Shown piece by piece: positions 22,620 to 61,643 of a stretch of 64,000 nucleotides of DNA. The notes below the pieces were generated by a model. The model saw only the letters and a program-made list of their open reading frames with translations. It did no database searches and was not told the DNA's origin. The translations under genes were made by a program, and so were the position numbers. The DNA comes from Polyangia bacterium. GTDB taxonomy: Bacteria > Myxococcota_A > Polyangia > JAAYKL01. The stretch lies in contig JBNLED010000095.1 in assembly GCA_050304755.1 (NCBI GenBank), positions 7,635-71,634 of the forward strand. The letters are read 5' to 3'. How positions within the stretch are numbered: position 1 is the first letter of the stretch; the number at the start of each line of letters is the position of its first letter.

Positions 22620-22996
22620 CTCATTCTCCTCGAAGAGTTTCCCCGCCAACATGTCTGTCTGATTTGTTGTGGAGAAGCTGATAATACAAATTGGTATGCC
22701 TGCTTGGCGTGCCAAAGGACAGTTTTGGCTCACCAGTCATCCTGCATTCCCTCGATGGTGCGCCTCCCTGGAAACCGGGGAGATCTCTGGTAATGGATTC
22801 AATCTGCCGACCGTGCTCCCGCTCGCTATACAAATACATCGAAAAAAACGGGCTCAATTCTTTCCAGTATGTAGCTCCTGGATCTCTCATTATCCGGCCT
22901 GTGTTTTCCAAATACTTGAAACCGCTTGAATAAATCGCCTTCCCTACTTGCCTCGGGGTCTACCGAAGCGACGAAGCGATTTCATACCTGATACTA

Positions 22997-23878
22997 TCAT
23001 TTATATGGCGTGCCGTTTTCGATCTCCGCCAAACGGGCCGACGCCGCGGCCAAATAGTCCGGTCTGGTCTTCTGGCTCGCGCTCTGCATGAACTTGTTGA
23101 GCCAGATCTTGGCATTCTCCGGATTGGTGTAGGAGTAGGTCCACCCCAGGCTGAACATGGCGTCTTCCATGTTCGGCTTGATCTCCATGGCCTGCCGGAA
23201 CTCCGCGACCGCCGCCTCGTACTCCTTCTTCTCCGCGAGCACCGTGCCCAGACGGTGGTGCAGCACCGCGAGCTCATCTCCCCTGCCCTCGAGGGCCTTG
23301 ATGCCCTCCCGGAACACCTGCTCCGCCTGCGCCAGGAAATGGAAATCGGCATAGAGGCCGCCGAGCTCCCGATAGGCCTCGAAGAACCGCGGATTCTTCA
23401 TGATTGTGTCGGTGTATTTCTGGAGCGCGTTCTGGGGGTCGTCCATTTTCTCGAAAACGACCCCGAGACGGTAGTGGGCTTTGAAGAGTGTATCGTCGAG
23501 CTCAATGGCCTTCACCAAGGCGCTCGCGGCCTGCTCCGGTTTCCCGGCCCATTGATACACCTCCCCGAGCTGGTAGTGCCAGAGGGCGACGCTGCCGTCC
23601 AGGGAGATGGCCTTGGAAAGATGGCGGGCGGCCTGGTCATACTCCTTGGTCTCGATGTACACCATCGCTAGATTGTGGTGAGCCTTCTCGTTTTCCGGAT
23701 CCAGGCTCACGGCCTTGCTGCAGTCGCGAATGGCCTGAGGATATAGCTGACGCCGATGGTACTCGACGCACTTGTTCATCATCTCCACCGACTGAACATG
23801 CTCGCGGCTGCACTTCGCTCCGGAAAGAATGAGAAGTGTTCCAGCTGCACAAATTGCCAAAATGACTTTCCTGCCCAT
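22997..23878 (-). CDS. TPR-repeat secreted protein or lipoprotein
   Basis: AGGAGA RBS. Signal peptide MGRKVILAICAAGTLLILSGAKC followed by ~7 TPR units (AHHNLAMVYIETKEYDQAARHLSKAISLD...). Confidence 0.7.
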   Translation of the reverse strand: MGRKVILAICAAGTLLILSGAKCSREHVQSVEMMNKCVEYHRRQLYPQAIRDCSKAVSLDPENEKAHHNLAMVYIETKEYDQAARHLSKAISLDGSVALWHYQLGEVYQWAGKPEQAASALVKAIELDDTLFKAHYRLGVVFEKMDDPQNALQKYTDTIMKNPRFFEAYRELGGLYADFHFLAQAEQVFREGIKALEGRGDELAVLHHRLGTVLAEKKEYEAAVAEFRQAMEIKPNMEDAMFSLGWTYSYTNPENAKIWLNKFMQSASQKTRPDYLAAASARLAEIENGTPYK

Positions 23879-24015
23879 CTTTTTTTCTCCTAGTTTGAGT
23901 TCAAAAATCAAAAGATTTTATAAAGACGTATTTAAGATGTAAAGCCCTTAAACGAGATCAATATAGCAAAAACACAGCGTTGACCAAATTTAGTTTTCGA
24001 GGATCGACAAGCCTG

Positions 24016-24753
24016 TCAACTACCCAATTTTATGATTTTTCCCGACTTATCGTGTTTATACCCCTTGGGCAATATCGCATCGACCTTCTTCTTGAAGCCC
24101 GTAGTCGGCCACTCCAGACGAGAAAACGCATCCACCACCTCGTTCCGCACGCGGATACTCTCATCCTCACACATCGTCTTCAGCAGCGGCTCCCTCGCCA
24201 CGTCCATCCCCTGCTTGGTCAGCGCAACCACGGTCTGATATCGCACCGTTTCGTCCACATCCTCCAGGAACCGAAGGAGCGACTTGGCCACATCGATATG
24301 CTCTATTTCTGCGAGCGCCATGACGGTTTGTAGCTTACGATCCGGATTTTTTTCATATTCGGTATCGAAATCTTCCAGAATCTCCAGGAGCTCCGTCTTG
24401 TACTCCTCGTCTGAAACAATGGCTTTCAAGGTGCGTAGAACCCAGCTGACGCTCTCCAGACTTCTCAGAGCGCGCTTGATCTGAGGCAACGCATCCCGGC
24501 CAATATCGATAATGGCGTCGTAAACCCACTCCTTTTCCCGCTCGTCTTCCATGCTCGGCTCGGCCACCACCGTGAACCGCTTGAGCAGACCGGCGATCGC
24601 CGTATCATTCCCCGACTTGGCGGCCTGGATGACATTCTGAAGCGAAATCTGGCGATAGTCTTTGGGTTTGAATTTGTTGTTTGCGCTTCGAATATCGCGG
24701 TCCAAACGATTCCTACGCCGTTTGTCCGCTGATAGAAAATCAAAAAATCCCAT
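24016..24753 (-). CDS. HEAT-repeat (PBS-lyase-like) protein
   Basis: Repeated DxxxxVRxxAxxAL motifs (DVDETVRYQTVVALTK, DESIRVRNEVVDAFSRL), 245 aa, all alpha-helical. Confidence 0.6.
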   Translation of the reverse strand: MGFFDFLSADKRRRNRLDRDIRSANNKFKPKDYRQISLQNVIQAAKSGNDTAIAGLLKRFTVVAEPSMEDEREKEWVYDAIIDIGRDALPQIKRALRSLESVSWVLRTLKAIVSDEEYKTELLEILEDFDTEYEKNPDRKLQTVMALAEIEHIDVAKSLLRFLEDVDETVRYQTVVALTKQGMDVAREPLLKTMCEDESIRVRNEVVDAFSRLEWPTTGFKKKVDAILPKGYKHDKSGKIIKLGS

Positions 24754-27317: not shown

Positions 27318-28811
27318 ATGGCCCGAGACTCATCCCTCACGGAACCTTCCCCCCGTGTTCTCGTCGTCGATGACGAAAAAGTCATCAGAGAAATCCTCGC
27401 TGATTTTCTCTCTCTCGAGGGTTTCACGGTCGCCACCGCGCCGGATGCGAATTCCGCGCTTGAACGGCTGGGGCAGGAGAACTTCGATATGGTGATCTCC
27501 GACCTCAAGATGCCGAACATGAGCGGCCTGGAGCTCCTCGAGCAGATCAAGCTGAACCACGAAAATGTCCTGATTGTCATCATGACCGGGTTCGGAACCG
27601 TAGAGACCGCTATCGAAGCGATGAAGAAGGGAGCGTACGACTATATCCTCAAACCCTTTAACGTCGAGGAGGTCATCCATATCGTCCACCGGGGATTGGA
27701 AACCCAGCGGCTCATCTCCGAGAACATCCGCCTTCGGGAGATTGTATCCCTCCAGGAGCTCTCCCTCGAGCTGCAGGCGACCCTGTCTCTGAAGGAGGTC
27801 ATCGACTCCACGCTGGCCAAGTGTATCTCCAGCGTCGGATGCGCGCTCGCGACCCTGTATCTACTGAATGAGAAGACCAAGAAGTTCGAGGAGGGGGGAT
27901 TTCTGGTACACCCGGATGCGCCCCCCGGCTCCAGCGCGGGTCAGCTCCGTCTGGACAGAGTGCTGGACGAGCTGAAGGCGGGGGCTTTCGTGTTGGTCCA
28001 TGGGGAAATGGCGGCGGCCGAATATTTCATGAAGCCGCCGCAGAACCTGGTCTCTTTGATGTGTATCCCCCTGGTGGTCCGCCAGAACCAGATCGGCATC
28101 TTGACGCTATACTCCTTTATCTACGACATGCGGTTCACCGAGGGGCAGCGAAAGATGTTCTCGATGCTGGCCTCCCGCGCGGCGGCGGCGATCGACAACG
28201 CCCTCCTCTTCAACAACCTTCAGCAGACCTTCAGACAGACCATCCAGGGCTTGGCGCGCGCTATCGAGGCCATGGACAAGTACACCGCCGGTCATTCGGA
28301 TCGGGTGATGGTGTACGCCCGAATCACCGCCGAGCAGCTCGGCGAGCCGGCGGATCAAATCGAGCTGGTGGTCCAGGCAGGGGCTCTTCACGATATCGGA
28401 AAGCTGGGCTGTCACGCCAATTTGAACAAGGCCGGAAAGCTCACCAGCGAGGAGTACGGGATTTTCAAGGAGCATCCGAGCTACGGAAAGGAGATTATCA
28501 AGCCGATTTCCTTCTTGCACGCCATCGTCCCGGGGGTCCAGTTCCACCACGAAAGATGGGACGGCAAGGGGTACCCCCAGGGGCTCGCCGGCAAAGAGAT
28601 CCCCAAGATCGCCCGAATCCTGGCCGTGGCGGATGCCTACGACGCCATGACCTCGAACCGGGCCTATCGACAGGCGCTGACGCACAATGTCGCCATCCAG
28701 GAGATACGGCGCTGCTCCGGGAGCCAGTTCGATCCCGAGGTCGTGGAGGCCTTTGTCCTCGCCATCGAAAAGTATCGCGCCAAGCGGGGACACATCAGCC
28801 CCGAAGACTAA
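27318..28811 (+). CDS. Response regulator with receiver, GAF-like and HD-GYP (c-di-GMP phosphodiesterase) domains, RpfG-like
   Basis: REC: VLVVDDEKVIREILADFL...DMVISDLKMPNMSGLELL...YDYILKPF. HD-GYP: HSDRVMVYA...ALHDIGKL...HHERWDGKGYPQGLAG...AVADAYDAMTSNRAYR. Confidence 0.85.
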   Translation: MARDSSLTEPSPRVLVVDDEKVIREILADFLSLEGFTVATAPDANSALERLGQENFDMVISDLKMPNMSGLELLEQIKLNHENVLIVIMTGFGTVETAIEAMKKGAYDYILKPFNVEEVIHIVHRGLETQRLISENIRLREIVSLQELSLELQATLSLKEVIDSTLAKCISSVGCALATLYLLNEKTKKFEEGGFLVHPDAPPGSSAGQLRLDRVLDELKAGAFVLVHGEMAAAEYFMKPPQNLVSLMCIPLVVRQNQIGILTLYSFIYDMRFTEGQRKMFSMLASRAAAAIDNALLFNNLQQTFRQTIQGLARAIEAMDKYTAGHSDRVMVYARITAEQLGEPADQIELVVQAGALHDIGKLGCHANLNKAGKLTSEEYGIFKEHPSYGKEIIKPISFLHAIVPGVQFHHERWDGKGYPQGLAGKEIPKIARILAVADAYDAMTSNRAYRQALTHNVAIQEIRRCSGSQFDPEVVEAFVLAIEKYRAKRGHISPED

Positions 28812-28820
28812 CGCCGCCTC

Positions 28821-30371
28821 ATGCGATCCGACAAATCAGGCGCCCTCGATTCCGCCGATGTCTCCGTGCGTGTTCGGGTGCTGCTCGGGCTCTTCGCCAC
28901 CATGGCCATCTTCGCCTTCCTCACGATCTACTCCATCATCTCCCACAAGCATACCGTGGAGAAGGTCGGGCTGATCAAGAGCTCCTATCTCCCCCTGATC
29001 CTCGCGACCTCCGAGATCAGCGCCAACCAGGTCGTCTTCAACATCTTCCTGGACCGGCTGGTGGACGATCCCAACCAGTCCGTGACGCGGGAGTGGATCA
29101 ACGCGGCGCGGCGCTACCGGCCCGAGGAGCTCGAACGGTTGCTCAAGGCCATCACCGCCACCCTCGAGTCCCCGATCCCGAGCGAGGAGGAGATGTTCCT
29201 CGAGGAGATGCGCCACCGGCTGAAGGAGGTCGGCCTTCGATATCAGGACAACGAGCGCCGTTTTCAGGGGCTCTATGACCTGATGGACACCGGCCGGCTC
29301 GACGAGGCCCGGGAGCACATCGAGAGCCTCAAGCGGGTGGAGCGGTTTCTGAACCGCGCCCTGTCCGGGATCGGTGATGATATCAAGCGACACATGATGG
29401 GGATTACCGAGGAGGCGGAGTACGACGGGCTGCGGGCCACCTGGGGGCTCGCCCTCTTCACCGCGGTGGGGGTCCTCATCGCCGGGACCCTCATCGTCTC
29501 GACAAACCGCCTCCTCACCCCCCTAAAGACCCTTCAGGCGGCGGTCCGCAAGGTCTCCCTCGGCGACTTCAAGACCCGCATCGATGTTCAGCGGCAGGAT
29601 GAAATCGGCGCCCTCGCGAACGGATTCAACAAGATGTCCGAGGCGCTGGAGGATCGGGATCAGATGCTGATCCGCTCTGAGCGACTCGCCACCGCGGGGA
29701 AGATGGCCGCCCAGGTGACCCATGAGATCCGGAACCCCCTCTCCTCCCTCGGCCTGAACGCGGAGCTCCTGGAAGAGGAGCTCTCGGTGAAGCAGAGCAC
29801 GGATGAGGCCCTCAACCTGCTCAAGGCCATGCAGGACGAGGTCGACCGGCTCACCAAGATCACCGAATCCTACCTCCGCTACTCCCGGCTGCCCTCGCCG
29901 GAGCCGAAGATGGACGATCTCAATGAGTTGGTGACCGCGGTCCTGGAGTTCATGAGAGAGGAGATAAGGGAGAGCGACATCGTCGTGACGATGCACCTGG
30001 AGGACGATCTGGAGCAGGTCTTCTTCGACCGCGCACAGATCCGCCAGGCCCTCTCCAATCTGGTAAGGAATGCCTGCGAGGTCATGCCCGAGGGGGGCGC
30101 GTTGACGGTCCGTACCCGACGTCGGGAGGAGCACATCGAGCTCCATGTTCAAGACACGGGGACGGGGGTTCCGGATGACGCCGCCGGCCACATCTTCGAA
30201 TCTTTTTTCAGTACCAAGAGCAGCGGCACCGGCCTCGGCCTGCCCCTGGTACGTCAGATCTGCGTCGCCCACGGCGGCGATGCCCGCTTGGAGCGAACCG
30301 GCGACGACGGCAGCTGCTTCGTCATCGCGCTGCCCCGGGTCAAATCAACAGACAGGGACAAGGTGGAATGA
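28821..30371 (+). CDS. Sensor histidine kinase (TM-HAMP-HisKA-HATPase_c)
   Basis: TM VLLGLFATMAIFAFLTIYSII. HAMP (LKTLQAAVRKVSLGDFKTRIDVQRQDEIGALANGFNKMSEAL). H-box AAQVTHEIRNPLSSL. N/G boxes LVRNACEVMPEGG...DTGTGVPDD...GTGLGLPLV. Confidence 0.85.
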   Translation: MRSDKSGALDSADVSVRVRVLLGLFATMAIFAFLTIYSIISHKHTVEKVGLIKSSYLPLILATSEISANQVVFNIFLDRLVDDPNQSVTREWINAARRYRPEELERLLKAITATLESPIPSEEEMFLEEMRHRLKEVGLRYQDNERRFQGLYDLMDTGRLDEAREHIESLKRVERFLNRALSGIGDDIKRHMMGITEEAEYDGLRATWGLALFTAVGVLIAGTLIVSTNRLLTPLKTLQAAVRKVSLGDFKTRIDVQRQDEIGALANGFNKMSEALEDRDQMLIRSERLATAGKMAAQVTHEIRNPLSSLGLNAELLEEELSVKQSTDEALNLLKAMQDEVDRLTKITESYLRYSRLPSPEPKMDDLNELVTAVLEFMREEIRESDIVVTMHLEDDLEQVFFDRAQIRQALSNLVRNACEVMPEGGALTVRTRRREEHIELHVQDTGTGVPDDAAGHIFESFFSTKSSGTGLGLPLVRQICVAHGGDARLERTGDDGSCFVIALPRVKSTDRDKVE

Positions 30372-36887: not shown

Positions 36888-37676
36888 ATGATGTCGCGAA
36901 TCGGATTATCGTTCTGTTTTTGTTTACTCACAACTTCGTGCGCCAAATCCCGAGAAGAGACGCCCGCCGTTGAGAAACAGGCGCCCTCGACCGAGCAGTC
37001 CGCGCTGCTGAAGGAGGCCAAAACGCTGACCGAGGCGGCGTACGATCTCAAGCTCGAGGGGAGGAATCGAGAGGCCCTCGAGCGGTTCGAGAAGGCCTTC
37101 GCCCTCCTGAATCGCGCGGCGGGACCGGAGAGCGGGGACGTGGCGTCCAACCTGGACGATCAGGCCACCGTACACCTCCGCACCGGTCAGTATCAGAGGG
37201 CCCGGGCGCTCTATCGTCAGGCCCTCGCCATCGAGAAGAGGCGCGCGCCGGAGGGATCCCGCCTGGCATCGGGGGTCGAACGACGCCTGGCCACGCTCGA
37301 CGCGCTGGAGCACCATGAGCACGTCTGCCGGGAACCCCTTACCCCTAGAAGCGAAGGTACAGAGGCGAACAGCAGTCCTCCCCTGCCCTATTTCCCCGAG
37401 AAGCAGGCGCTCTATACCGCCTACGCCAGGATGGCGGATGAGCTGAAGCCCTGTCTGGAGAAGTCCCACTCGTCAAAGCCAATTCCCGTCTGGACCGTGC
37501 TCCTCGGTACCGGCCGGATCGTGCTGGCGCGCACCGAGGGACCGCTGGCAGGAACAGAACCCGCGAAGTGTCTGGAGACAACACTCATCAAGGTCTCTCC
37601 GAAGTATGCCGATGATATGCCCCACTTCAGAGCCTGCTATCGTAATTTCAAATACCCGTTTCTCATTGTCTTGTAG
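36888..37676 (+). CDS. Hypothetical lipoprotein with TPR-like N-terminal region
   Basis: Signal peptide MMSRIGLSFCFCLLTTSCAK (lipobox-like). Helical repeats (EALERFEKAFALL; RARALYRQALAI). Confidence 0.5.
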   Translation: MMSRIGLSFCFCLLTTSCAKSREETPAVEKQAPSTEQSALLKEAKTLTEAAYDLKLEGRNREALERFEKAFALLNRAAGPESGDVASNLDDQATVHLRTGQYQRARALYRQALAIEKRRAPEGSRLASGVERRLATLDALEHHEHVCREPLTPRSEGTEANSSPPLPYFPEKQALYTAYARMADELKPCLEKSHSSKPIPVWTVLLGTGRIVLARTEGPLAGTEPAKCLETTLIKVSPKYADDMPHFRACYRNFKYPFLIVL

Positions 37677-37768: not shown

Positions 37769-38107
37769 ATGGATAACAGAAGACAGAAGCGTCGCTATCG
37801 TGCCCGTCTCAAGGGCCACCTCTGGTTCGAAGGGCAAAAAGTCTCCGTGGAGACCGTCAATCTCAGCGAATCGGGGGTCCGCATCACCCTGGACATGCCG
37901 CTCCTCGAAGGGTCCGATGTCCGGCTGCACCTCGACGTTTCACCGAACGGGGTCATGAAGGTCGAGCCCATCGTCGCCAACGGGGTGGTCGTCTGGTGCC
38001 AGGAGGATATTGAGGTGGGCTACCAGGCGGGGATTCGATTCGTCACCCTCTCGACGGATCATGTGAATTATCTCTCCCACTCCCTCCCCTCCTATCCCCC
38101 GGCGTGA
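37769..38107 (+). CDS. PilZ-domain protein (c-di-GMP receptor)
   Basis: GGAG RBS. RRQKRRYRAR (RxxxR) and NLSESGVRI (D/NxSxxG) motifs. 113 aa. The ORF could also start at TTG 37754. Confidence 0.7.
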   Translation: MDNRRQKRRYRARLKGHLWFEGQKVSVETVNLSESGVRITLDMPLLEGSDVRLHLDVSPNGVMKVEPIVANGVVVWCQEDIEVGYQAGIRFVTLSTDHVNYLSHSLPSYPPA

Positions 38108-38212: not shown

Positions 38213-38746
38213 TCACTGAGAGACTATGGGATCCGGGCAGTCGCGCTCGAAGGCACAGCCGACACAGTCCTCTCCGATCCAGAAGCGGTCGAAGAGGCCG
38301 GCGAGCTGCTTGACGAAGGGGGGCTCATCGCTGACCAGGCCGAGCTCCAGGTTCCGCCGGGAGGCCTTCTTGACCCCCAGCCCGGCGCCGGTGAAGTTGG
38401 CGGATCCCATGTATCCGTGCCGGTTGTCCACGATCACCATCTTCCAGTGGGATCGGGGGCAGATCTGGAGCTCCAGCCGGCCGCTGGTCAGCCGCGGGAA
38501 GCCCTCCAGGGTCTTCCGGAAGTGGGAGGACGGCAGATCGCTGTGCACGACGCGGAAGGTCACGCCGTGCCGGGCCATCTGATCGAACTGTTCCAGGATC
38601 GGGCGATACCCGCGGGGGGTGCTGATATGCATGTCCTTGAGATTCGCGGTGGCGATCCAGACGGTCCGGCTCGCGCCGAGCACCATCTCATGGATCACCT
38701 TCTGATGGAGCGCCTCGCCGCTGATGATCTCGAGGTCGGACAGCAT
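38213..38746 (-). CDS. Phospholipase D-family single-HKD-domain protein (Nuc-like nuclease/phosphodiesterase fold), cytoplasmic
   Basis: Perfect HKD motif HWKMVIVDNRHGYMGSANFT (HxK-x4-D-x6-GSxN). 177 aa. No signal peptide. Cys-rich C-terminus (CVGCAFERDC). Start is 4 nt after the stop of the upstream PilZ gene. Confidence 0.8.
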   Translation of the reverse strand: MLSDLEIISGEALHQKVIHEMVLGASRTVWIATANLKDMHISTPRGYRPILEQFDQMARHGVTFRVVHSDLPSSHFRKTLEGFPRLTSGRLELQICPRSHWKMVIVDNRHGYMGSANFTGAGLGVKKASRRNLELGLVSDEPPFVKQLAGLFDRFWIGEDCVGCAFERDCPDPIVSQ

Positions 38747-38750
38747 CTAG

Positions 38751-39542
38751 CTAGTGCCTGATGTTGTGAAAAGCGGCCTTCACGCGGGCGGTGATCGGAA
38801 GGAGACGTCGGAGGACGGCGCGGCCCATCGACCGCCCCCTCGCCTTCACGGGCTCGGGCAGATGTCCCGCAGCGTTCGTCGACCACCGCGCGGCCACGGC
38901 GCTCCCCCGCTTCGCCCCTGTCAGCAGGAACCCCAGCACCGGCGCGGCGTAGCGCACGACCGTACGCCACGCGTCCCGGAAGGGATGGGGCGACCAGTCC
39001 TGCTCCTCGGCCGGAGTCTCCTCCCCCTGGGTCTCGGCGGGATCGATGAAGGCGTCATCGGTAATCCGCAGCACCACCTGGACGGTGTGATCCGATTGAA
39101 TCGCGCCGATGTCCGAGACCACCGTCTCGATGGCCACCCCCCCCGTGCTCATCACCACGGGGCGCCCCAGCTCGAGGCAGAAGGTCTCGCCGATCGTCGC
39201 CGGCGGCAACGGCGCCTGGGGCGCGGCGTCGGAAACCGTCTCATTTGTGGCCGGCGCGCCCTCGGACGCCACCTTCAGCCCCACCCGGGCGCCGCCGCTG
39301 TCATCGGCCTCGGACCAGATGACCCGCGCGGACTGTTCGACAGGGGTCCGCCCGGAATCCCAGAAGATACGCAGCAGCACCTCGCTGTCCAGCGCCGGCA
39401 TCCCGTTGAAGTAGGCGCCGATGCCCGCGTCCGAGAGGTTGTCGGTCCGGCCCGAGCAGAACGGCTCGCCGTCGCTCCCGATCACCTCGATGGATTTCTC
39501 AATCGCCATCCGCTTCTCTTCCAAACGTCTCTCTTCGTACAT
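38751..39542 (-). CDS. PilZ-domain protein with ~130-aa C-terminal extension, first gene of the PilZ-PLD operon
   Basis: N-terminal ERRLEEKRMAIEKSIEVIG...GRTDNLSDAGIGAYF (R-rich motif plus NxSxxG) and VEQSARVIWSE...ARVGLKV fit the PilZ beta-barrel. The RxxxR spacing is atypical (RxxxxR). 263 aa. Confidence 0.55.
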   Translation of the reverse strand: MYEERRLEEKRMAIEKSIEVIGSDGEPFCSGRTDNLSDAGIGAYFNGMPALDSEVLLRIFWDSGRTPVEQSARVIWSEADDSGGARVGLKVASEGAPATNETVSDAAPQAPLPPATIGETFCLELGRPVVMSTGGVAIETVVSDIGAIQSDHTVQVVLRITDDAFIDPAETQGEETPAEEQDWSPHPFRDAWRTVVRYAAPVLGFLLTGAKRGSAVAARWSTNAAGHLPEPVKARGRSMGRAVLRRLLPITARVKAAFHNIRH

Positions 39543-39672
39543 ACTCCACCTCCGGTGTCACCGTGACACAGGGCTACTCTATCGTTTCGGGCGGATGGTT
39601 CAAAAAAATCGGCAAAGCCTTTCGACCCCAAAGTAATCCGGGCTGGGGGTGAGGGGCCGGGCAGACAGGGCC

Positions 39673-40437
39673 TCAATCCACCGGGATGAAGTAGGCGAGG
39701 CCGGCGGAGACGGACTGCTGGCCGGCGGGGGAGCCGTCGATGTACAGGGTGATCCCCTTCGGCAGGATGAAGCCCATGCCCATGCCGGCCTGGACAAAGT
39801 AGCGATCCCGCCCCTGGATCCTCTCCGCCGGAGCGTCGATGAAGATCGGACCGCCGAAGACGCGGGGGGCGAGGTAGAGACGCCAGACATCGAAGAGGGT
39901 GTACCCGACAGTGAGGCCGAGCTGAACATCGGTGGCCCAGAGGTGCCCCCTGATTCGGTCGGTGTCCTCGAAGGGGCTCCTCGAGTAGCTCGCGGCAAAT
40001 GAGATAGACAGGAAGGGCCGAGGCCCCTTCTCCTCCAACAGCTGCCATGTGAGCCTGAGGGAGAGGAGGAACCCTGTGCCCACCTCCAGGTCGAGCCCGT
40101 CACCGTACATCTCACCGTTGGTGACCGTCCCGCCCGCCAGAGAGAGGCTGAGCCGGTCGGAGAAGAAGTAGCCGACCTGCGCTACGGCGGTCTGCTGCAC
40201 GAGGGTGGGATCGGCGCCCCCCTCGAAGTGGAGGTGGGACCAGAACCGGCCGTACCCGGCGGACACCTGAACCCCCCGGGAGCCCTCCGTCCCGGGCTCA
40301 TCGGATTTCGGCGCGTTGCAGCCGGTCGGACCGACCGGCGCCCCCACCCCTCAGGAGACCGAGGGGCGCGGGAACAGGAGCATCGCCCCTGTCAGGAGCG
40401 CGCCGCAGAACATTGTTATAGTGTGCTTTCGCATCAT
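39673..40437 (-). pseudogene. Outer-membrane beta-barrel protein gene interrupted by an in-frame TGA (40351-40353) between the signal peptide and the mature domain
   Basis: ATG at 40437 encodes MMRKHTITMFCGALLTGAMLLFPRPSVS, then TGA, then continues in frame as GVGAPVGPTG...AGLAYFIPVD (alternating hydrophobic beta-strands). Without the upstream segment the barrel has no signal peptide. Confidence 0.5.
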
Positions 40438-43106: not shown

Positions 43107-45467
43107 TCAGGCCTTCACCGTCCGCTTGGCGACAACGTAGATGAGGGCGACTGAGGCATATCCGACAGCACCAGCGAAGATCATCTTGGAGAAGCCGGTG
43201 TTGGTGATGGCGGTCATGGCGAACGAGGACCCCAGCACCGAGGACAAGGTGGCGATGCCGTAGGTCATGGGCACGGTGGACGCCTTCTTGGCCGCGACCA
43301 GCGAGGCCACCCCGAGGGGGTAGTACATGCCGAGGGCGAGCCCCACGGGACAGACGGCGACCGCCACGAGGAGGAGCTTGACGATGAGGGGCACGGACAG
43401 CAGGTGCATGTTGTAGAGCTGCACGAGGCCGATCGCCCAGACCACCGCGGCCACGGTGATGAGGGCCAGGGTCTTGGGCCCCCGCATGATGCGCCGCTTG
43501 TCCTGGAGCAACGCGCCGATGCCGTTGAACACCAGGAAGGTGGCCAGGATGACCGCCACGGCGTACAGGGGGTTCCCAAGGAAGAGCTCGGTCTTGGCCA
43601 TGAGTCCCACCTCCACGCACATATACGAGATGCCCGAGACGAGGAAGTAGAGCAGCCACGGCAGCGGCACCCGGCTCGCCTTCCCCCCGCGGAACCGGGC
43701 CACCAGCACCACCACCACCGAGACGAAGAAGAAAAGGATGACGGTGAAGATCTTGATCCACCCGGAGGAGTACTCCTGGTTCTTGAGCTGCTTCATGGTG
43801 GGGAATAGAGTGAACCCGGTGAGCTCCACCTTCCGCATGAAGGGGGAGTCGTCGGTGAGCATCTCCAGGGCGTCGACGGGGGCATTGATGACCCTTACCA
43901 GCCGGTCCAGGCCGTGCTCCTCGTCGTAGGGAGAGTAGAGCCTGCGCATCTTCTTGTCGATGGAGCGGGCCTTGGCCTCCATCTTCCCGATGTCCTCTCG
44001 GGTGAGCCCCTGGGGACGCAGCACCAGCGTGTCCATGAGGGGAATGGGCGCCCGCCCCATGATGTGGATGGCCTTCTTGAAGTCCTTCATCCCCCGCTCT
44101 TTAAAGAGCTTCCGGAAGGCGACGATCTTGTACATCACCATCTGGCTGGCGAAGACCATCATCCCATCATCGGTGAGGTGATCCAGGTAGGCGCTCATGG
44201 CCTCGTAGGTGTCGAGGTACTTCCGGGAGTGGCCGGTCCGGTTGGCGTGGATGGAGCCGTTGGTGGCGAGGAAGATGAAGTCGTACTTCTCCTTTGTGGT
44301 GTTGAGGAAGTCCCGGCCCTCCATGGGCACAAGGTTGATCCCCGGCCGTCTCAGGAAGTTGTGCAGGTTCATGCTGTGCAGCACCGGGTGCTGGGCGAGG
44401 CCCGTGACCGCGTCGTTGAGCTCCACCCCAGTGATCCGGGCGTTGCCCTGGGCGAGGCGGTCGATGAACACCATGTCCCGCGCCACCCCGGCGAACATCA
44501 CCAAGACGTTCTTCGGCTCGTGTTCGGTGATAAACGGGAACGAGTGGTGCAGGGTGAAGGGCAGGATGTCCTCGCGGGTCTGATCCGGATCATAGCGGTA
44601 GACGTGGACGTTGCTGATACCGTCGTCCTGGGTCACGGTGAACTTTTCAACCTGGGCCTTGCGGGCGTTGGCCCCCGCGCGGATGAGGGTGGTCCGGGCG
44701 AGGGAGTTCCAGCGGACGTCCACCTCCTTCACCTCTTCCTTAGTCCGCGGCCGGAGCAGGGTCCGGGCCAGCCACTGGACGTCCGGCTTCTCTTTGAAGA
44801 TGGTCTCGTTGACCGAGAGGACGTAGGTAACGCCGAAGATGAGCGCCATGACGGCCACGATCGGCACTTTGCGCTTGACCCGGGTGTTGAGCACCAGCAG
44901 GAAGGCCAGGAAGAACAGGATGATCAGCGTGGGCTGGAGATCCGTGTAGGTGAACATCATGGGCGCGATGATGCAGCCGATGCCCGCCCCGAGGAGGTCG
45001 AAGAAGTAGAGCTGGCCGATGCGGCTCGACCCGATGGTGAAGTAGCTGGAGAGCAGCGCGCCGAACAGGAAATACGGCGGCAGGAACAGGACGGAATAGA
45101 CGATGAGCTTGGCCGAGTCCCGGGCCGGGTTGGAGAGGGCGATGTGGATCTGGCTGAAGAAGGCGTTCGCGATGATGAAGAAGAGGATGAACACCACAAC
45201 CATGGTCGGGAAGGCCGCCACGGAGAAACGGCGGATCAGCTTCTCCCGCGAGCCCTTGTAGAAGAAGTGGCAGTACATGGAGCCGAGGGCGAGGCCGAAG
45301 AGGGCGAGGGGGATGGCGAGGAAGTTGGAGATCCCGCCGAGGAAGAACGCGAGGAGGCGCACCTGGACCAGCTCGTACATGAGGCTGGTGGCGCCGATGA
45401 GGAAAATGCCGGCGTAGATTTCGCGGTTGGTCAGCTTGTTTTCTTCAGACATCAATTCCCCTTTCAA
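43107..45467 (-). CDS. Polytopic membrane protein with embedded spermidine/spermine-synthase-like (PABS methyltransferase-fold) domain
   Basis: ~7 N-terminal TM helices. Central soluble region NVLVMFAGVARDMVFIDRLAQGNARITGVELNDAV...YDFIFLA resembles the Rossmann segment of spermidine synthases. ~5 C-terminal TM helices. 786 aa. Confidence 0.5.
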   Translation of the reverse strand: MKGELMSEENKLTNREIYAGIFLIGATSLMYELVQVRLLAFFLGGISNFLAIPLALFGLALGSMYCHFFYKGSREKLIRRFSVAAFPTMVVVFILFFIIANAFFSQIHIALSNPARDSAKLIVYSVLFLPPYFLFGALLSSYFTIGSSRIGQLYFFDLLGAGIGCIIAPMMFTYTDLQPTLIILFFLAFLLVLNTRVKRKVPIVAVMALIFGVTYVLSVNETIFKEKPDVQWLARTLLRPRTKEEVKEVDVRWNSLARTTLIRAGANARKAQVEKFTVTQDDGISNVHVYRYDPDQTREDILPFTLHHSFPFITEHEPKNVLVMFAGVARDMVFIDRLAQGNARITGVELNDAVTGLAQHPVLHSMNLHNFLRRPGINLVPMEGRDFLNTTKEKYDFIFLATNGSIHANRTGHSRKYLDTYEAMSAYLDHLTDDGMMVFASQMVMYKIVAFRKLFKERGMKDFKKAIHIMGRAPIPLMDTLVLRPQGLTREDIGKMEAKARSIDKKMRRLYSPYDEEHGLDRLVRVINAPVDALEMLTDDSPFMRKVELTGFTLFPTMKQLKNQEYSSGWIKIFTVILFFFVSVVVVLVARFRGGKASRVPLPWLLYFLVSGISYMCVEVGLMAKTELFLGNPLYAVAVILATFLVFNGIGALLQDKRRIMRGPKTLALITVAAVVWAIGLVQLYNMHLLSVPLIVKLLLVAVAVCPVGLALGMYYPLGVASLVAAKKASTVPMTYGIATLSSVLGSSFAMTAITNTGFSKMIFAGAVGYASVALIYVVAKRTVKA

Positions 45468-45553: not shown

Positions 45554-47242
45554 TCAGGGCATGTATCCGCCCTCATTGTCGTTGAAGGTCCACGAAGGTT
45601 TCTCCTGGTCGATGTTATCTTCCCACTTCTCACGCTCTATCGACAGGAAGGATTCCGTCCCTTCGAGATACCCGGCGGGAAACGTGCCCTCCTGAAAGCT
45701 GAGCTCGTAGTCCGGGTTTCCGTACAACCACACCGCCTGTAGATCGGTGCAGCCGGTCAGATTCAGGCGGTGCGACGGATCGCTGCCGTCATACCTCAGA
45801 TCGTTATCGCTGAGGTCCAGATGCTGCAACGACGCGCACTCGTCAAGGAATAGCTCCTGTAGTTCATTGCCGCAGAGCTCCAGGTGCGTCAGCGCGTTCG
45901 CGTTCGGGGCGAGCACGATACGCGGGATGCGGTTGTCGCTGAAGTCGACGTGAGTCAACTCGGGGCTCTCGGAGAGGTCGACGGCATAGTCTATCCGGTT
46001 CCCCCCGGCGGAGATGCTCTCCAGGTCGGGCTTGCCCGAGAAATCGAGATCGGGCCCTTCACCCGAGAAGTTGTCGTTCTCCAGATAGAGGATCTTCAAC
46101 CGGGAGGCGCCGGAAATATCGAGCTCGGAGAGGCTCGTCTCGCTCAGGTGGAGCTCCTCCACGGCGCTGGCGTCATCGGGCATCGCCAAGTCTTCGAGGG
46201 AAGAATTCTCGTAGAGATTGATGTAGTTGAGGCGGTTATTCGATGAGAGATCAATCGACAGAATCTGGTTGTCCGAGGCGGACAGCCACTCCAGGTCCGT
46301 ATTGCCGCTCACGTCGAGCCCGGTGAGGCCATTCCCCCCGACATTCAGGGTGCGGAGCCGGGTGAAGTCGTTCAGTTCGATGCTGACGACCCCCGTCTCG
46401 GTCAGATCCAGGTATTCGAGGGTATCGGTCTCGGGCAGGATGATCTCCCCGATGGGGTTTTCGGCCAGATCCAGGTATTCCAGCCGCTCGCTGGCGTGGA
46501 GGTCGAGGGGGTGGGAGATTCTGTTTCCCGCGAGCTCCACGTTCACGAGCCAGGGCTTGTTCTCGAGATCGATGGTCTCGACGGCGTTCCCCGCGGCGAG
46601 GTGCAGGGACTCCAGGTTCTCCGCGTAGGAGAGATCGATGGAGGAGATGCGGTTGTTGTTCAGGGCGAGCATCCGAACCGACGGGCCGGCCGGAAGGCCC
46701 ACCCACTCGAGCACTTCGTTGTAAGGCAGCCACACCCACTCGACAAATCGGTTGTTCATCAAATCGACGGTCGGGATTCGGTTCCCTTCGAAATAGAAGT
46801 GGGTCATCTTCGTGATACAACGGATGGTGGGGTAGACCGCAATGACGCCCATCTCGCTCGCCTGGACCTCCTCGGTCTCGACTGACGCCATGAGCGGCGA
46901 GCCGTCGTCCAGCCGCCCGATCAGGATCTCCCCCTCCTCGGGGCACCAGTCGTCCGGCGCCTCGTGACAGGTCGGCCGCAGTCTTTCGAAAGCGGCGTCG
47001 TCCTCGGCGTGGACGTCCTCGACATCGTACCAGTACATCCCCCTCGCCCGGCAGACCGCGCGGGGGTCGTCCCGGGTATCCGTCGCCTCCTCTGTCTCTG
47101 TTCCGGTGTCCCGCGCGTCGTCGTTGGAGTTCGCCTTGAGATCATCGTACTCCCCGACGATGGCCTGGCACCCGCTGACGACGAGCAAGAGGAGACCGGC
47201 GCAGATTCGGCCGTCATTCCATCGTGCAATCCCCAATTTCAC
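45554..47242 (-). CDS. Leucine-rich-repeat lipoprotein
   Basis: Signal peptide with lipobox (LLLVVSGC). Many ~22-aa LRR units (LExLxLxxNxIxxIDLSxxxxL), e.g. LEYLDLAENPIGEIILPETDTLEYLDLTETGVVSIELNDFTRLRTLNVGGNGLTGLDVSGNTDLEWLSASDNQILSIDLSSNNRLNYINL. GTG at 47242 or TTG at 47236 (GGAGA RBS). Confidence 0.8.
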   Translation of the reverse strand: MKLGIARWNDGRICAGLLLLVVSGCQAIVGEYDDLKANSNDDARDTGTETEEATDTRDDPRAVCRARGMYWYDVEDVHAEDDAAFERLRPTCHEAPDDWCPEEGEILIGRLDDGSPLMASVETEEVQASEMGVIAVYPTIRCITKMTHFYFEGNRIPTVDLMNNRFVEWVWLPYNEVLEWVGLPAGPSVRMLALNNNRISSIDLSYAENLESLHLAAGNAVETIDLENKPWLVNVELAGNRISHPLDLHASERLEYLDLAENPIGEIILPETDTLEYLDLTETGVVSIELNDFTRLRTLNVGGNGLTGLDVSGNTDLEWLSASDNQILSIDLSSNNRLNYINLYENSSLEDLAMPDDASAVEELHLSETSLSELDISGASRLKILYLENDNFSGEGPDLDFSGKPDLESISAGGNRIDYAVDLSESPELTHVDFSDNRIPRIVLAPNANALTHLELCGNELQELFLDECASLQHLDLSDNDLRYDGSDPSHRLNLTGCTDLQAVWLYGNPDYELSFQEGTFPAGYLEGTESFLSIEREKWEDNIDQEKPSWTFNDNEGGYMP

Positions 47243-51163: not shown

Positions 51164-51799
51164 TCACCGGTCCTTTTTCAAGAGGGTCTTGTCGACGCCG
51201 ACGATGGTCTTGACGGCCACCGAGATGGCCCCGAGGGCCACGCCGATGATGATGGCCCGCTTGGCCGCTGTGTTGGGATACTTGAGGAGAAACGCCGCGC
51301 CCTCCCGGATCGCGCCCACGTTGTTCTCCACCACGGGGATGAGCGCCAGGATCACGATGGTCGCCGAGACGAGGAGCACGGTGGCGTTGACGGAGCGGGC
51401 CCGGAACGCGCGGAACGCGGCGGAGGCCACGAAGAAGGCGAGCAGGGAGAACATGGTGGCCTCGAGGGGCATTATCAGGTGCTCGAACCAGGTGGAGAAC
51501 AGGCTCCCCTCCTGCATCCCGTACCGCATCCCCACGAAGATCATGGCGCCGGCGGAGAGGAGGGTGATGACGGAGTAGCCGTACCGCGGCTCCCGTTTCC
51601 GGATCCGCTTCAGGTGCATCCAGAGCAGGCTGAGGCACGCCACCAGCAGCATCGTGGAGCTGAGGGGCTGCTTCCACTGCAGCATGATGGCGCCGGGTTT
51701 CTGCAGGTAGGGGTGGGGGATGTAGTAGTGGGCCACGAAGAAGAGGCCGAGCACGGTCATGAGCACGAACGGCGCGCGATACCCGAGCTTCCCCATCAT
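51164..51799 (-). CDS. Hypothetical polytopic membrane protein (gene 2 of operon)
   Basis: ~211 aa from MMGKLGYRAPFVLMTVLGLFF. ~6 TM helices. ATGA overlap with the upstream gene's stop at 51796. The ORF extends to 51838. Confidence 0.5.
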   Translation of the reverse strand: MMGKLGYRAPFVLMTVLGLFFVAHYYIPHPYLQKPGAIMLQWKQPLSSTMLLVACLSLLWMHLKRIRKREPRYGYSVITLLSAGAMIFVGMRYGMQEGSLFSTWFEHLIMPLEATMFSLLAFFVASAAFRAFRARSVNATVLLVSATIVILALIPVVENNVGAIREGAAFLLKYPNTAAKRAIIIGVALGAISVAVKTIVGVDKTLLKKDR

Positions 51800-52716
51800 T
51801 TTCCCCCCGAGACGAGGTGTTTCAGGCCCGCCGCCCACTCTGCCGCGCCGTCCAGACCGAGGGCGCTGAGCATCATGAGGAGAAATCCGGCGAGGATCAG
51901 CCCCCCGATCCCGACCTTGAACCAGTCGTGGGCCACGATGGTCGCCCGGCTCACCGGATCGCCGCTCACCAGGGCCCCCGCGGCGAACAGCTCCTCGCCG
52001 ATGAGGGTGTAATCACAGGTGGTGATGAAGAAGGGGAGCTGGGAGGTGGAGTCGCAGCCGCCGATCTGTCGGGCGCCCACGGCGTTTCCGGTCTCGGCGA
52101 GGATCAGGGACTCCGAGTAGAAGTGGCCGATGAGGAAGTTGGCGGCCACCCGCTTCCGGGTCATCATCCCCACCACGGCCATCGTGTAAGTCATGTGTCG
52201 CGAGGTGAGGTAGGCCACATCATCGGGGGAGAAGTCCTCCCCCCTCCCGGCTCGGAAGAAGGCGTCCTTCACCACGCTCCGCGCCACCGGAAACGTGAGG
52301 GTGCTGAAGTTGGGGACATTGACCCCGCACCGGAGCTTCGCGGCGCGGTGGGCCACCTCGGAGAGGATGGACATGGAGGCCGCGGTGGCCGGATCGCTCA
52401 CGTCCGTGAGCCCGGGGACATAGGCGATGGGGCGCCCCATCTCGGCGGCGCGACCCACCGCGTCATTGAGGGCCTCGAGCCCGTGAATCGGTCGGATATA
52501 GACGACCTTTCCCCGCCGGCTTCTATACATCAGGATGAAGAAGGCCGCGGAGAAGAGCGCCACCGCGACGAGATTCGCCGCCCGGTCCTCGCGAAACCAC
52601 CGGATCTTTTTTGAAGTATCATTTTCGACGGATGGGGTGTGGGGGGCGGCGGATACCAAGACCGGCACCGCGATAGCGATGAGGAGTATCAACAAGGCTA
52701 CTAGTCGGGGTCGCAT
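51796..52716 (-). CDS. Hypothetical bitopic membrane protein with soluble middle domain (gene 1 of operon)
   Basis: 306 aa. Signal/TM MRPRLVALLILLIAIAVPVLVSAA, second TM, ~200-aa soluble region, C-terminal TM (GIGGLILAGFLLMMLSALG). Same architecture as the gene at 50296-51162. Confidence 0.5.
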   Translation of the reverse strand: MRPRLVALLILLIAIAVPVLVSAAPHTPSVENDTSKKIRWFREDRAANLVAVALFSAAFFILMYRSRRGKVVYIRPIHGLEALNDAVGRAAEMGRPIAYVPGLTDVSDPATAASMSILSEVAHRAAKLRCGVNVPNFSTLTFPVARSVVKDAFFRAGRGEDFSPDDVAYLTSRHMTYTMAVVGMMTRKRVAANFLIGHFYSESLILAETGNAVGARQIGGCDSTSQLPFFITTCDYTLIGEELFAAGALVSGDPVSRATIVAHDWFKVGIGGLILAGFLLMMLSALGLDGAAEWAAGLKHLVSGGK

Positions 52717-52904: not shown

Positions 52905-54569
52905 ATGAGATACCGAATTTATATGCTGTCGTTCGCGCTGGCGGCCCTTCTCGGCGAGAACGGGTGTCGTACGGTCGACTCCGGCAAAGACGATGATACA
53001 GGGTCAGATGAAATGGAAACGGGCTCCGACGGTGACGCTGACGGCGACGGCGATGCCGACGGGGATGGGGACACGGACGCGGACACCGACGCGGACTCCG
53101 ATAGTGACGGGGATTCCGACGCCGACACTGACAGCGACACTGACAGCGACACTGACAGTGACACTGACAGTGACACTGACGCGGACACCGACGCAGACAC
53201 CGATGCGGATTCCGACGTGGACGCTGACGGTGACGGAGACACCGATATGGATGTGGATATGGACGTAGATATGGACGTGGACATGGATACGGACATGGAT
53301 GTGGATTCGGATACAGATGCGGACACGGACGCGGACTCGGATACCGAAATGGAATGCGGCACCGAAGAGCTCCTCGACAGCCCCTTCGTCATGTACGCCG
53401 AGGATCTCGCGGCGCTCGAAGGGATCACCTGGATCCGGGGAGATCTAACCCTGGTCGGCAGCGAGACCGATGACCTCTCGGCCCCGTCCGCCCTCCAGTG
53501 TGTCGAAGGCGCTATCGATTTCGAACGAACCGGGCTGACGAGCCTCGAGGGGCTGGAAGGGCTGGCGTCGGTCGCGATGGGTTTCGTGATTCGCGACAAC
53601 CTCCTCCTCGAGACCCTCGATCCTTTGAGAGAGGATATCGTCATCGCCACCGGAGGCTCGATCGATATTGAAGACAACGCCTCCCTGCTGTCCATCGAGG
53701 GGTTCACGGCCATCGAGGCTCTCAGCCTGGTTCATATAGAGGGCAACTCCCGCCTCCAGATAGTGTCGGGGCTCTCTTCGCTCGAGAGCAGCGGAGAGTT
53801 ACTTATTGTAGGGAATGACGCATTGGAGAGCCTCATCGGCCTGAATAACTATATCGGGACTGGCCGGCTGGTGATCTCCGACAACGACAGCCTCATGACC
53901 CTCGACGGCTTCAATATACTCTCCTCCGTCGGGGAGGCCGTCATCTCGGACAACGACGCGCTCCTCGATCTGGCGGGGCTGATCAATTTCGTCAGCGGCA
54001 GCCCCCTGACGATACAGGGAAACGCGAGTCTCGTCAGCCTCCAGGGCCTCGAGAGCTATGTCGGCGGTTCCTATCTGACCATCGATGACAACGACAGCCT
54101 CACCAGCCTGGACGGTCTGGAGGTCTTCACCGGGGGCGGCGGGTTCACCCTCTCCAACAACGACAGCCTCGTGGACACGTCAGGGCTGGCGGGCTTCAGG
54201 GGGACCGGTACCATCGAAATCATCAACAACGACAGCCTCGCCGCGATTGGTGGATTCGATCTGATGACAGCGACGGGCAATATCATCATCGAGGACAATG
54301 ATCAGCTCTCGGATCTCGACGGGTTCTCCAACCTTGACAGCACCTCCGGTGTGACCATCAACGACAACGCGATCCTGGCGGATCTGACCCCCTTCCTGTC
54401 GTTGGAGACCATCGGCTCCGCCGAGATCACCGGCAACCCGTCGCTCCCCTACTGCGCGGTGTGTGACGCGTTCGCAGAGAAGCTCGCCGACGGGCTCATC
54501 GCGTTCTGCGATGCCAACCTGGAGGACGACTGCTGGGAGAACGACCAGCTCGTCTGTGACTCGATCTAA
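52905..54569 (+). CDS. Lipoprotein with acidic Asp-Thr/Ser/Met dipeptide-repeat tract, then ~22-aa LRR-like repeats and a Cys-rich C-terminus
   Basis: Signal peptide with lipobox-like LLGENGC. ~120 aa of [41 protein letters not shown]...[15 protein letters not shown]. Then repeats of the form LxSLxGLxxxxGxLxIxDNDSL. C-terminal [36 protein letters not shown]. Confidence 0.7.
53131..53190. repeat. Perfect tandem 12-nt repeat (gacactgacagc/t x5) inside the acidic tract of the 52905-54569 gene
   Basis: gacactgacagcgacactgacagcgacactgacagtgacactgacagtgacactgac read directly. In-frame unit encoding DTDS. Confidence 0.8.
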
Positions 54570-56765: not shown

Positions 56766-57094
56766 AGTCATCTCCTTCTGCTGGGTGACCAGCACACGTA
56801 TCCCGCTGGATGCAGCGATCCCGAGTGTCGATTCACTCTTTGTTTCCAGCGGTTTACAAACCAGAGCAAGCAAATGGTATGCCAAGGGGGATCATCTCTG
56901 TTTGTCTTAATATAGAGGGTGATAACAGGTATTGATGTGGCTCTGAGGACACTTCGGCGTGTGTTGATTTTTCACAGTTTCGGGAAAGGGGGGCTTTCTT
57001 ACGGATGAACACAGACGAACACGGAGTTCCAAGAGCGGTCCATGCCGTCCGTGCTCATCCAGGTTGTTGGTGTAATCCAAGGAAGGGATCTCGG

Positions 57095-61614: not shown

Positions 61615-61643
61615 CCTCACCTCCACAGAGAACCATAGCCATT

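Follow-up and report, generated by a model that had tools for sequence, protein, structure and literature searches.

A lineage-restricted operon of a PilZ protein and a single-HKD phospholipase D-superfamily enzyme in a Polyangia bacterium

On a contig of a Polyangia bacterium, a gene encoding a 263-amino-acid (aa) protein with a PilZ domain (hereafter PilZ-263) lies directly in front of a gene encoding a 177-aa member of the phospholipase D (PLD) superfamily that bears a single HKD motif (hereafter the HKD protein or HKD-177). This arrangement raises the question of whether a PilZ adaptor, acting on behalf of the second messenger cyclic di-GMP (c-di-GMP), controls a phosphodiester-cleaving enzyme, or whether the two genes are co-transcribed and otherwise unconnected. 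Analysis of the surrounding 64,000-nucleotide stretch of DNA, referred to here as the window, together with homologous loci, demonstrates that the two genes form a bicistronic, translationally coupled operon, whose members stay together across a single narrow and sparsely sampled clade. Because the pairing is found only in three closely related, uncultured lineages and each family otherwise occurs without the other, we regard the locus as a lineage-restricted two-gene operon that may, but need not, encode a c-di-GMP-gated nuclease.

Structure and conservation of the gene pair

Both genes are located on the minus strand. The first cistron, PilZ-263, is an open reading frame (ORF) matching the Pfam PilZ family that spans positions 38751 to 39542, beginning with ATG and terminating in a TAG stop codon at 38751-38753. 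The second cistron, HKD, spans 38213 to 38746, begins with an ATG at 38744-38746, and is assigned by its match to PLDc_2, an AlphaFold2 (AF2) model, and Foldseek. As stated in the initial annotation, and as confirmed in the ORF listing and the sequence itself, only 4 nucleotides (nt), 'ctag' (38747-38750, minus strand), separate the stop codon of the first gene from the start codon of the second. The ribosome binding sites of the two cistrons differ in strength: a strong Shine-Dalgarno sequence, GGAGG (39549-39553, minus strand), is positioned 6 nt 5' of the PilZ-263 ATG, whereas HKD is preceded by a weak AGG 10 nt ahead of its ATG, making it likely that HKD is translated through coupling to PilZ-263. 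GC content at third codon positions is 0.88 in the PilZ-263 frame versus 0.66 in the antisense ORF. In addition, PilZ-263, HKD, and a nearby convergent PilZ gene (PilZ-112, described below) each score above the Pfam gathering threshold, and all three are identical in the NCBI and Logan calls on GCA_050303475.1, JBNLBU010000020.1.

The expectation that the pair would be kept in related genomes is borne out by two further loci, L087 and L089/L090, in which the stop and start codons of the two genes form an ATGA overlap. In L087 the PilZ and HKD proteins are 50% and 67% identical, respectively, to those of the window, and the genes appear in the order PilZ-268, HKD-175, a convergent PilZ-112, and a 262-aa tetratricopeptide repeat (TPR) protein, with a GH5 gene next, in inverted orientation. 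The PilZ protein of L089/L090 is 55% identical to that of the window; here the contig ends 40-50 nt past the ATGA overlap, and the remaining stretch encodes MSADFELVHGEALHHQVI, matching the HKD N-terminus. The gene located 5' of the pair is different in each case, encoding an outer membrane protein (OMP)-like protein in the window, a divergent acidic protein in L087, and a polytopic membrane protein in L089. Since these upstream genes are unlike one another, the two genes and the region in front of them appear to move together. In line with the initial annotation, which was aware of no described PilZ-HKD module, searches of the available literature library combining PilZ with HKD, PLD, or nuclease returned irrelevant papers only, none of which tied PilZ to an HKD enzyme.

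The HKD enzyme and its relatives

The 177-aa protein matches two Pfam families, PLDc_2 (PF13091; 48.5 bits versus a cutoff of 27, E=1e-12) and PLDc (PF00614; 26.3 bits versus a cutoff of 21.9, E=6.7e-6). The textbook HKD motif noted from the outset was found at residues 100-119 (HWKMVIVDNRHGYMGSANFT) and takes the form H100-W-K102-x4-D107-x6-G114-S115-A-N117-F-T (38390-38449, minus strand). In an alignment of 82 orthologues with identity down to 39%, H100, K102, G114, S115, A116, and N117 are present in every sequence and D107 in 81 of the 82. Equally invariant are four cysteines, consisting of C96 (38459-38461) and the C-terminal cluster C161-x2-C164-x5-C170 (38237-38266, minus strand), as well as K37, R65, H68, R98, R131, N132, and E134. 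This pattern of conservation in the HKD motif, the four cysteines (Cys4), and the basic residues suggests that the active site is intact, that a metal is bound, and that the substrate pocket is basic. The Cys4 set is probably a structural metal (Zn) site, and an anionic substrate, nucleic acid being the likeliest, is probably contacted by K37, R65, H68, R98, and R131. The protein contains no hydrophobic segment, with a maximum 19-residue Kyte-Doolittle mean of 0.85, which fits the cytoplasmic location originally proposed for it.

The AF2 model of the HKD protein (predicted local distance difference test score, pLDDT, 85.9; predicted template modeling score, pTM, 0.84) yielded 114 Foldseek matches in the PDB at E<=1e-3. 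All top matches listed have the PLD fold with a probability of 1.0, at E values of about 1e-8 to 1e-7 and template modeling (TM) scores of 0.55-0.66, and the matches include the TrmBL2 C-terminal domain, Zucchini/PLD6, bacterial PLD, vaccinia F13, NucT, PLD3, and Nuc. When PDB sequences were searched with the HKD family profile, phospholipase D 7e0m was the best match (E=2.7e-9), followed by PLD3 (1.6e-7), F13 (5e-5), K4 (9e-3), and then PLD4, with Nuc, Zucchini, and NucT being marginal. Scores against curated NCBIfam equivalogs fall well below their cutoffs, as observed for DrmC (38 bits, cutoff 133), DpdK (16.9 bits, cutoff 100), NucT (14.7 and 13.1 bits, cutoffs 297 and 211), and the cardiolipin synthase model TIGR04265 (16.6 bits, cutoff 290, the match being limited to the surroundings of the motif). 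Because all of these equivalogs fail so widely, the sequence comparisons place the HKD protein in a distinct, uncharacterized branch of the PLD superfamily, one whose relatives include nucleases and which lies outside the lipid-synthase subfamily. The kinship with Nuc-type nucleases suggested in the initial annotation is upheld in this respect, the nearest relatives in sequence and fold being PLD3/4, vaccinia F13/K4, Zucchini, and Nuc/NucT, as opposed to cardiolipin synthases or DrmC.

Comparison with characterized enzymes highlights both similarities and differences. Like Nuc of Salmonella plasmid pKM101 and NucT of Helicobacter pylori, HKD-177 falls in the size range of ~155-180 aa, carries one HxK(x)4D(x)6GSxN motif, and is predicted to adopt the PLD fold (Foldseek matches to 1byr and 6ehi with E about 1e-7 and TM 0.57-0.58). 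Nuc and NucT are expected to function as homodimers, as HKD-177 would by analogy. They are exported proteins; HKD-177, on the other hand, lacks a hydrophobic N-terminus, scores below the cutoffs of their equivalogs, and possesses the invariant Cys4 set along with WIATANLKDM and RRNLE motifs, all of which are absent from Nuc and NucT. Zucchini/PLD6 (MitoPLD), a single-stranded RNA endonuclease of the piRNA pathway, likewise has a single HKD motif (Foldseek E=2e-8 to 4ggk), is dimeric, and contains an extra cysteine-based metal element, a zinc finger, to which the Cys4 set may be likened. Sequence likeness to Zucchini is negligible (profile E 0.3-0.8), and the two differ in layout, in that Zucchini, a protein with an N-terminal membrane anchor, has its zinc finger inserted internally as a CCCH element, whereas the cysteines of HKD-177 are C96 and a C-terminal CxxCx5C in a protein with no anchor. 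Together with 7e0m, the best matches among solved structures are PLD3/PLD4, which are 5'-3' single-stranded DNA exonucleases, and vaccinia F13 and K4. These four are eukaryotic or viral proteins of 380-490 aa with two HKD-type halves per chain, while HKD-177 corresponds to a single half.

Some of these relatives invite the suggestion that the HKD protein acts on membrane lipids, as either a phospholipase or a transphosphatidylase, and is recruited to the membrane by the hydrophobic or basic tail of PilZ-263. The automatic name assigned by JGI is 'phosphatidylserine/phosphatidylglycerophosphate/cardiolipin synthase-like enzyme', the best profile match is the phospholipase D 7e0m with vaccinia F13 also matching, and many PilZ-263 family members possess a C-terminal segment of transmembrane-grade hydropathy. 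Bacterial cardiolipin synthases and PssA-type lipid synthases, however, carry two HKD motifs per chain and associate with the membrane, whereas HKD-177 carries a single motif, lacks any hydrophobic segment, and scores far below the TIGR04265 cutoff. The single-HKD proteins of comparable size that have been characterized (Nuc, NucT, BfiI, Zucchini) act as nucleases, a comparison accompanied by the Foldseek fold matches, and the PilZ-263 tail encoded in the window is basic and not of transmembrane grade. Taken together, these points make a lipid substrate improbable.

The HKD family is both large and broadly distributed. A word-indexed search of 5.8 billion proteins returned 393 matches, the best 120 of which are 60-79% identical to the query and nearly all 173-196 aa in length, and a scan of one genome per species located the family, as a stand-alone protein of ~178 aa, in 283 species. 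These species belong to the Myxococcota, Desulfobacterota, Gammaproteobacteria, Actinomycetota (Micropruina, Aestuariimicrobium), and Verrucomicrobiota (including Akkermansia), as well as to the Acidobacteriota, Armatimonadota, Fibrobacterota, Lentisphaerae, and Leptospirales. The family, represented by the window and loci L007-L086 in the neighborhood analysis, is distributed with its 283 species over at least 10 phyla, stays 40-79% identical, belongs to no curated family, and has no conserved neighbors.

The initial annotation also pointed to anti-phage systems that make use of the same fold, and a corresponding reading would cast the HKD protein as a nuclease effector, comparable to DISARM DrmC or to Mokosh, operating under a nucleotide sensor. 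DrmC is itself a small PLD-like protein and provides the best family-level match to HKD-177 in both NCBIfam (the 38 bits given above) and PADLOC, where weak matches to MkoB (E=1e-7) and to DrmC models (E down to 3e-7) were obtained. Moreover, a distant homologue, 38% identical, is encoded near WYL, AAA-ATPase, and helicase genes on a Segatella replicon. The DrmC, DpdK, and NucT scores are nevertheless all far below threshold, and the PilZ proteins yielded no PADLOC match. Unlike in DISARM, drmA, drmB, and methyltransferase genes were not found beside HKD-177, the gene being stand-alone in 80 species. The maintenance of invariant residues at 40-79% identity across phyla, among unrelated neighbors, is unusual for defence genes, and the HKD family was detected in none of 50,697 phage records and in 2 of 72,556 plasmid records. 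The pair is surrounded by genes for GH5, TPR, OMP-like, MFS, and cytidylate-kinase-like proteins, and elsewhere the window encodes RF1, Rho, and RNase PH. No defence genes were found flanking the pair, which sits in an ordinary chromosomal context and not in a defence island. On the strength of the sub-threshold scores and this genomic context the defence reading was rejected; we consider it very improbable, and the proposed anti-phage link is not sustained.

The Segatella homologue merits separate description. It is encoded at 4980-6107 of locus L098, on a 317-kb replicon of Segatella hominis (NZ_CP137560.1), directly upstream of a metallophosphoesterase gene and near genes for an AAA-ATPase, a WYL protein, an S8 peptidase, and a helicase, and it represents the sole context seen that is at all defence-like.

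The PilZ-263 family and its partners

The PilZ domain of PilZ-263 occupies residues 8-91 (39270-39521, minus strand; Pfam envelope PF07238, E=1e-7). At 32.7 bits versus a cutoff of 22.5 it passes the profile check, in support of the original assignment, and precomputed Pfam annotation of its homologues gives the same result. The remainder of the protein is made up of three elements: a middle β-rich region at residues 124-165 (39048-39173, minus strand) containing ...GGVAIETVV... and conserved in family alignments A3 and A5, the latter comprising 28 sequences; a signature motif, DWSPHPFRDAW, at residues 182-192 (38967-38999, minus strand), conserved across A5; and a C-terminal helical tail at residues 193-263 (38754-38966, minus strand), in which Y.GP and a hydrophobic stretch give way to a strongly basic segment (12 K/R versus 1 D/E within the last 63 residues). 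The same layout holds for the family as represented in A5, namely PilZ, a middle GG(V/I)A(I/V)E region, DWxPHPFRDAW, Y.GP, a hydrophobic stretch, and a basic tail. The hydropathy of the tail is transmembrane-grade in about 10 of the 28 members and not in the window protein. Pfam covers the PilZ part alone, with no family matching the middle region, the DWxPHPFRDAW motif, or the tail. An AF2 model built from 4 sequences, and of low confidence (whole-model mean pLDDT 51), predicts six strands within residues 17-91 and helices at residues 187-226 and 230-262.

Whether PilZ-263 acts as a c-di-GMP receptor, as the initial annotation took PilZ domains to do, can be answered in part. In addition to passing the Pfam threshold, the domain retains the [DN]xSxxG motif as N35-L-S37-D-A-G40, with residue 35 being D or N in 28 of 28 family members, S37 nearly invariant, and G40 invariant. 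The first binding motif, in contrast, is non-canonical. Two family-conserved arginines, R6 and R11, lie just 5' of the PilZ domain (39510-39527, minus strand) in the sequence E-R5-R6-L-E-E-K10-R11; they are nearly invariant in A5 and define an R-x4-R motif in place of the canonical RxxxR, which was not found in PilZ-263, while an R6-x3-K10 spacing is present in some family members only. Given this substitution, sequence alone does not assure c-di-GMP binding by PilZ-263. In L089 (at 708-776), the public call for the PilZ protein (P0122) begins at an internal Met, and the open frame 5' of it encodes a conserved EERRLEPKR; the true start is probably located further 5'.

An exhaustive hidden Markov model (HMM) search of 1.84 billion representatives identified 58 matches to the PilZ-263 family, 45 of them at E<=1e-10 and mostly full-length at 240-300 aa; the word-indexed search, which returned 4 clusters only, understated the size of the family. 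A metagenome scan with the A3 HMM recovered no new member, its sole match being a contig already known. The genes found next to family members vary. In L088 the PilZ gene is followed by a convergent HMG-CoA synthase gene, in L092 by a gene for a 129-aa protein without a Pfam family, and in L094 by a convergent gene for a GGGtGRT protein. At L093 (4001-8131) the family member is directly upstream of genes for a T2SSE ATPase and two T2SSF proteins, and at L095 (4001-8116) it is directly upstream of genes for an FHA-fused T2SSE ATPase and at least one T2SSF protein, the third downstream gene running to the end of the locus. The arrangement in L093 and L095 suggests that a Tad/T2SS-like secretion ATPase is the more usual partner of the family, which overall looks like an adaptor with variable partners.

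The likeness to known stand-alone PilZ adaptors that control a partner enzyme (for instance the PilZ-FimX-PilB axis, YcgR, and MrkH-type or DgrA-type receptors) is twofold. Firstly, PilZ-263 shares with them an N-terminal PilZ domain carrying [DN]xSxxG. Secondly, its gene lies immediately in front of the gene for a candidate target, just as those of its distant relatives precede T2SSE-type ATPase genes. It differs from them in its R-x4-R motif, its extra middle region, and its DWxPHPFRDAW motif and tail, which lack a Pfam match.

PilZ control of the HKD enzyme, genomic setting, and implications

According to the reading that we favor, this clade has brought an autonomous Cys4 single-HKD phosphodiesterase, probably a nuclease, under the control of a PilZ adaptor. 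Single-HKD members of the superfamily homodimerize to build one active site, as is known for Nuc, BfiI, and Zucchini. By analogy with these enzymes, two HKD chains would dimerize to form one H-K-D active site, and the dimer would cleave a phosphodiester by way of a phospho-histidine intermediate. PilZ-263 and HKD would be made together through translational coupling, and PilZ-263 would pass the c-di-GMP status of the cell to the enzyme, whether by tethering it via the basic or hydrophobic tail or by gating it. In this scheme we infer the dimerization of the HKD protein (by analogy), its nucleic-acid substrate, its metal site, c-di-GMP binding, and any contact between the PilZ and HKD proteins.

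Support for PilZ control comes from the preservation of the stop/start overlap despite changing flanks, from the position of PilZ-263 family members 5' of candidate targets, and from a second PilZ gene that flanks HKD. This gene, PilZ-112 (37769-38107, plus strand), is the third, convergent stand-alone PilZ gene reported initially; it encodes a 112-aa protein that matches Pfam PilZ (E=2e-13) and has canonical RRxxxR and NxSxxG motifs. In the window 105 nt separate its stop codon from that of HKD, and it is syntenic in L087, flanking HKD in both loci. The word-indexed search of 5.8 billion proteins placed PilZ-112 in 3 clusters, a count from that search only, which is the one that understated the PilZ-263 family. 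On this evidence, PilZ control of the HKD enzyme in this clade is plausible, at somewhat below an even chance. The more specific proposal that the PilZ adaptor directly binds the Cys4 HKD enzyme, gating or localizing it in response to c-di-GMP, we consider unlikely.

Several findings weigh against PilZ control. The first concerns the distribution of the HKD family, in which a PilZ gene adjoins HKD in 0 of 80 loci from other species. Just one of the 80, L067 from a Myxococcales metagenome-assembled genome, has a PilZ gene within 5 kb, 3.8 kb off. Searches of the 80 loci by tblastn with both window PilZ proteins produced no match, and nothing was found beside HKD with HMMs of the PilZ-263 family (A3, A5) or with a broadened iterated PilZ HMM that recognizes all five PilZ types available. 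A regular expression for RxxxR...[DN]xSxxG gave 117 mostly spurious matches, the only Pfam-confirmed PilZ proteins among them being those at 6631-7275 of L067 and at 61252-62205 of the window. The complete or long contigs carrying HKD gave the same outcome, with PilZ not adjacent. The genes upstream of HKD in 79 species loci represent 141 Pfam families, each present in at most 4 loci, and the families listed do not include PilZ; those downstream, in 76 loci, represent 108 families, with no more than 5 loci sharing any one (HATPase_c). From the loci without an adjacent PilZ gene it follows that the HKD enzyme is encoded on its own and ordinarily functions with no PilZ partner.

The remaining points against PilZ control relate to the pairing itself and to PilZ-263. 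Of the 8 PilZ-263 family loci examined, 3 contain the pair, and these are closely related and fall within a single 50%-identity PilZ cluster; tblastn detected no HKD gene within the contig in the other 5. The PilZ-HKD module envisaged in the initial annotation does not, therefore, extend beyond this one cluster. The TPR, PilZ-112, and GH5 genes are also syntenic in L087, such that simple inheritance of local gene order could account for the pairing. Three PilZ genes are encoded within the 64-kb window, and in a genome that appears this rich in PilZ genes chance adjacency is less unlikely. Lastly, the R-x4-R variant leaves c-di-GMP binding unassured, and the structure model of PilZ-263, built on its 4-sequence alignment, is poor.

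Many of these findings are equally those expected if the two genes were co-transcribed and functionally unrelated, a lineage-specific new operon having joined an autonomous, housekeeping-type HKD gene to the 3' side of a PilZ gene, in a genome rich in such genes, while PilZ-263 acts on another target, for instance a secretion ATPase encoded elsewhere. Beyond one narrow clade each family occurs everywhere without the other, the synteny with L087 reaches unrelated genes (TPR, GH5), and distant PilZ-263 family members precede T2SSE/T2SSF genes. What such an explanation accommodates less readily is that stop/start coupling has been kept in all three lineages despite the changed upstream flank, that genes for stand-alone adaptors of the PilZ-263 family are commonly followed at once by a candidate target gene, and that two of the lineages have another PilZ gene next to HKD. 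We judge a functionally unrelated operon to be almost as likely as PilZ control of the HKD enzyme.

The window contains additional genes with potential connections to c-di-GMP. The window's remaining PilZ protein, encoded at 61252-62205 (minus strand), is 317 aa long, with a C-terminal PilZ domain (E=3e-14) carrying canonical RxxxR and NxSxxG motifs and 200 N-terminal residues without a Pfam match. The HD-GYP response regulator identified initially at 27318-28811 (plus strand) was verified, with Response_reg, GAF, and HD_5 domains, the HD at residue 358, and the GYP at 418. Directly 3' of it, at 28821-30371 (plus strand), is a gene for a HAMP-HisKA-HATPase histidine kinase, and 27318-30371 likely encodes a two-component c-di-GMP-degrading pair. 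A weak match to TIGR02266 was obtained among the window proteins; along with a weak CglE match and the names of relatives, it suggests that the organism is probably Myxococcota-like ('Deltaproteobacteria'). A search of the window with Rfam revealed no c-di-GMP riboswitch and one tRNA only.

Closest to the operon, a gene at 39673-40347 (minus strand) lies 130 nt upstream of PilZ-263 on the same strand. The 224-aa protein that it encodes weakly matches CglE gliding-motility and myxobacterial OMP β-barrel models (NCBIfam E=1.4e-5), and neither L087 nor L089 has the gene conserved in front of the pair. On the other side, the TPR protein of the syntenic block (262 aa; 36888-37676, plus strand; Pfam TPR_12) is 56% identical to its counterpart in L087. 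The window further encodes RF-1, Rho, RNase PH, an Opp-type ABC transporter, gamma-glutamyltranspeptidase, GH5, MFS, and TPR proteins. Repeat proteins include that encoded by a 3508-aa ORF at 12207-22733 (minus strand), which consists mostly of TPR repeats and matches 22 TPR/ARM-type Pfam families, with genes for another TPR protein (22997-23911) and for a HEAT-repeat protein (24016-24753) following it. Two leucine-rich-repeat proteins and one DUF6754 protein are encoded at 45554-47242 (minus strand), 52905-54569 (plus strand), and 51796-52716 (minus strand), and large ORFs without a Pfam match occupy 43107-45467, 55512-56885, and 58810-61038.

The general importance of the pairing is limited, since the sequences known to carry it number three, all of them short, closely related, and from uncultured bacteria. 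Independently of it, two uncharacterized families have now become testable, a stand-alone Cys4 single-HKD enzyme and an adaptor composed of a PilZ domain, DWxPHPFRDAW, and a tail. If PilZ does control the HKD protein, the operon would represent a new class of c-di-GMP output, phosphodiester cleavage by a PLD-superfamily enzyme. Direct binding between the two proteins, if it occurs, would provide the first link between c-di-GMP signaling and an enzyme of that superfamily, and with it a route to the substrate of a widespread, invariant, and uncharacterized HKD family.

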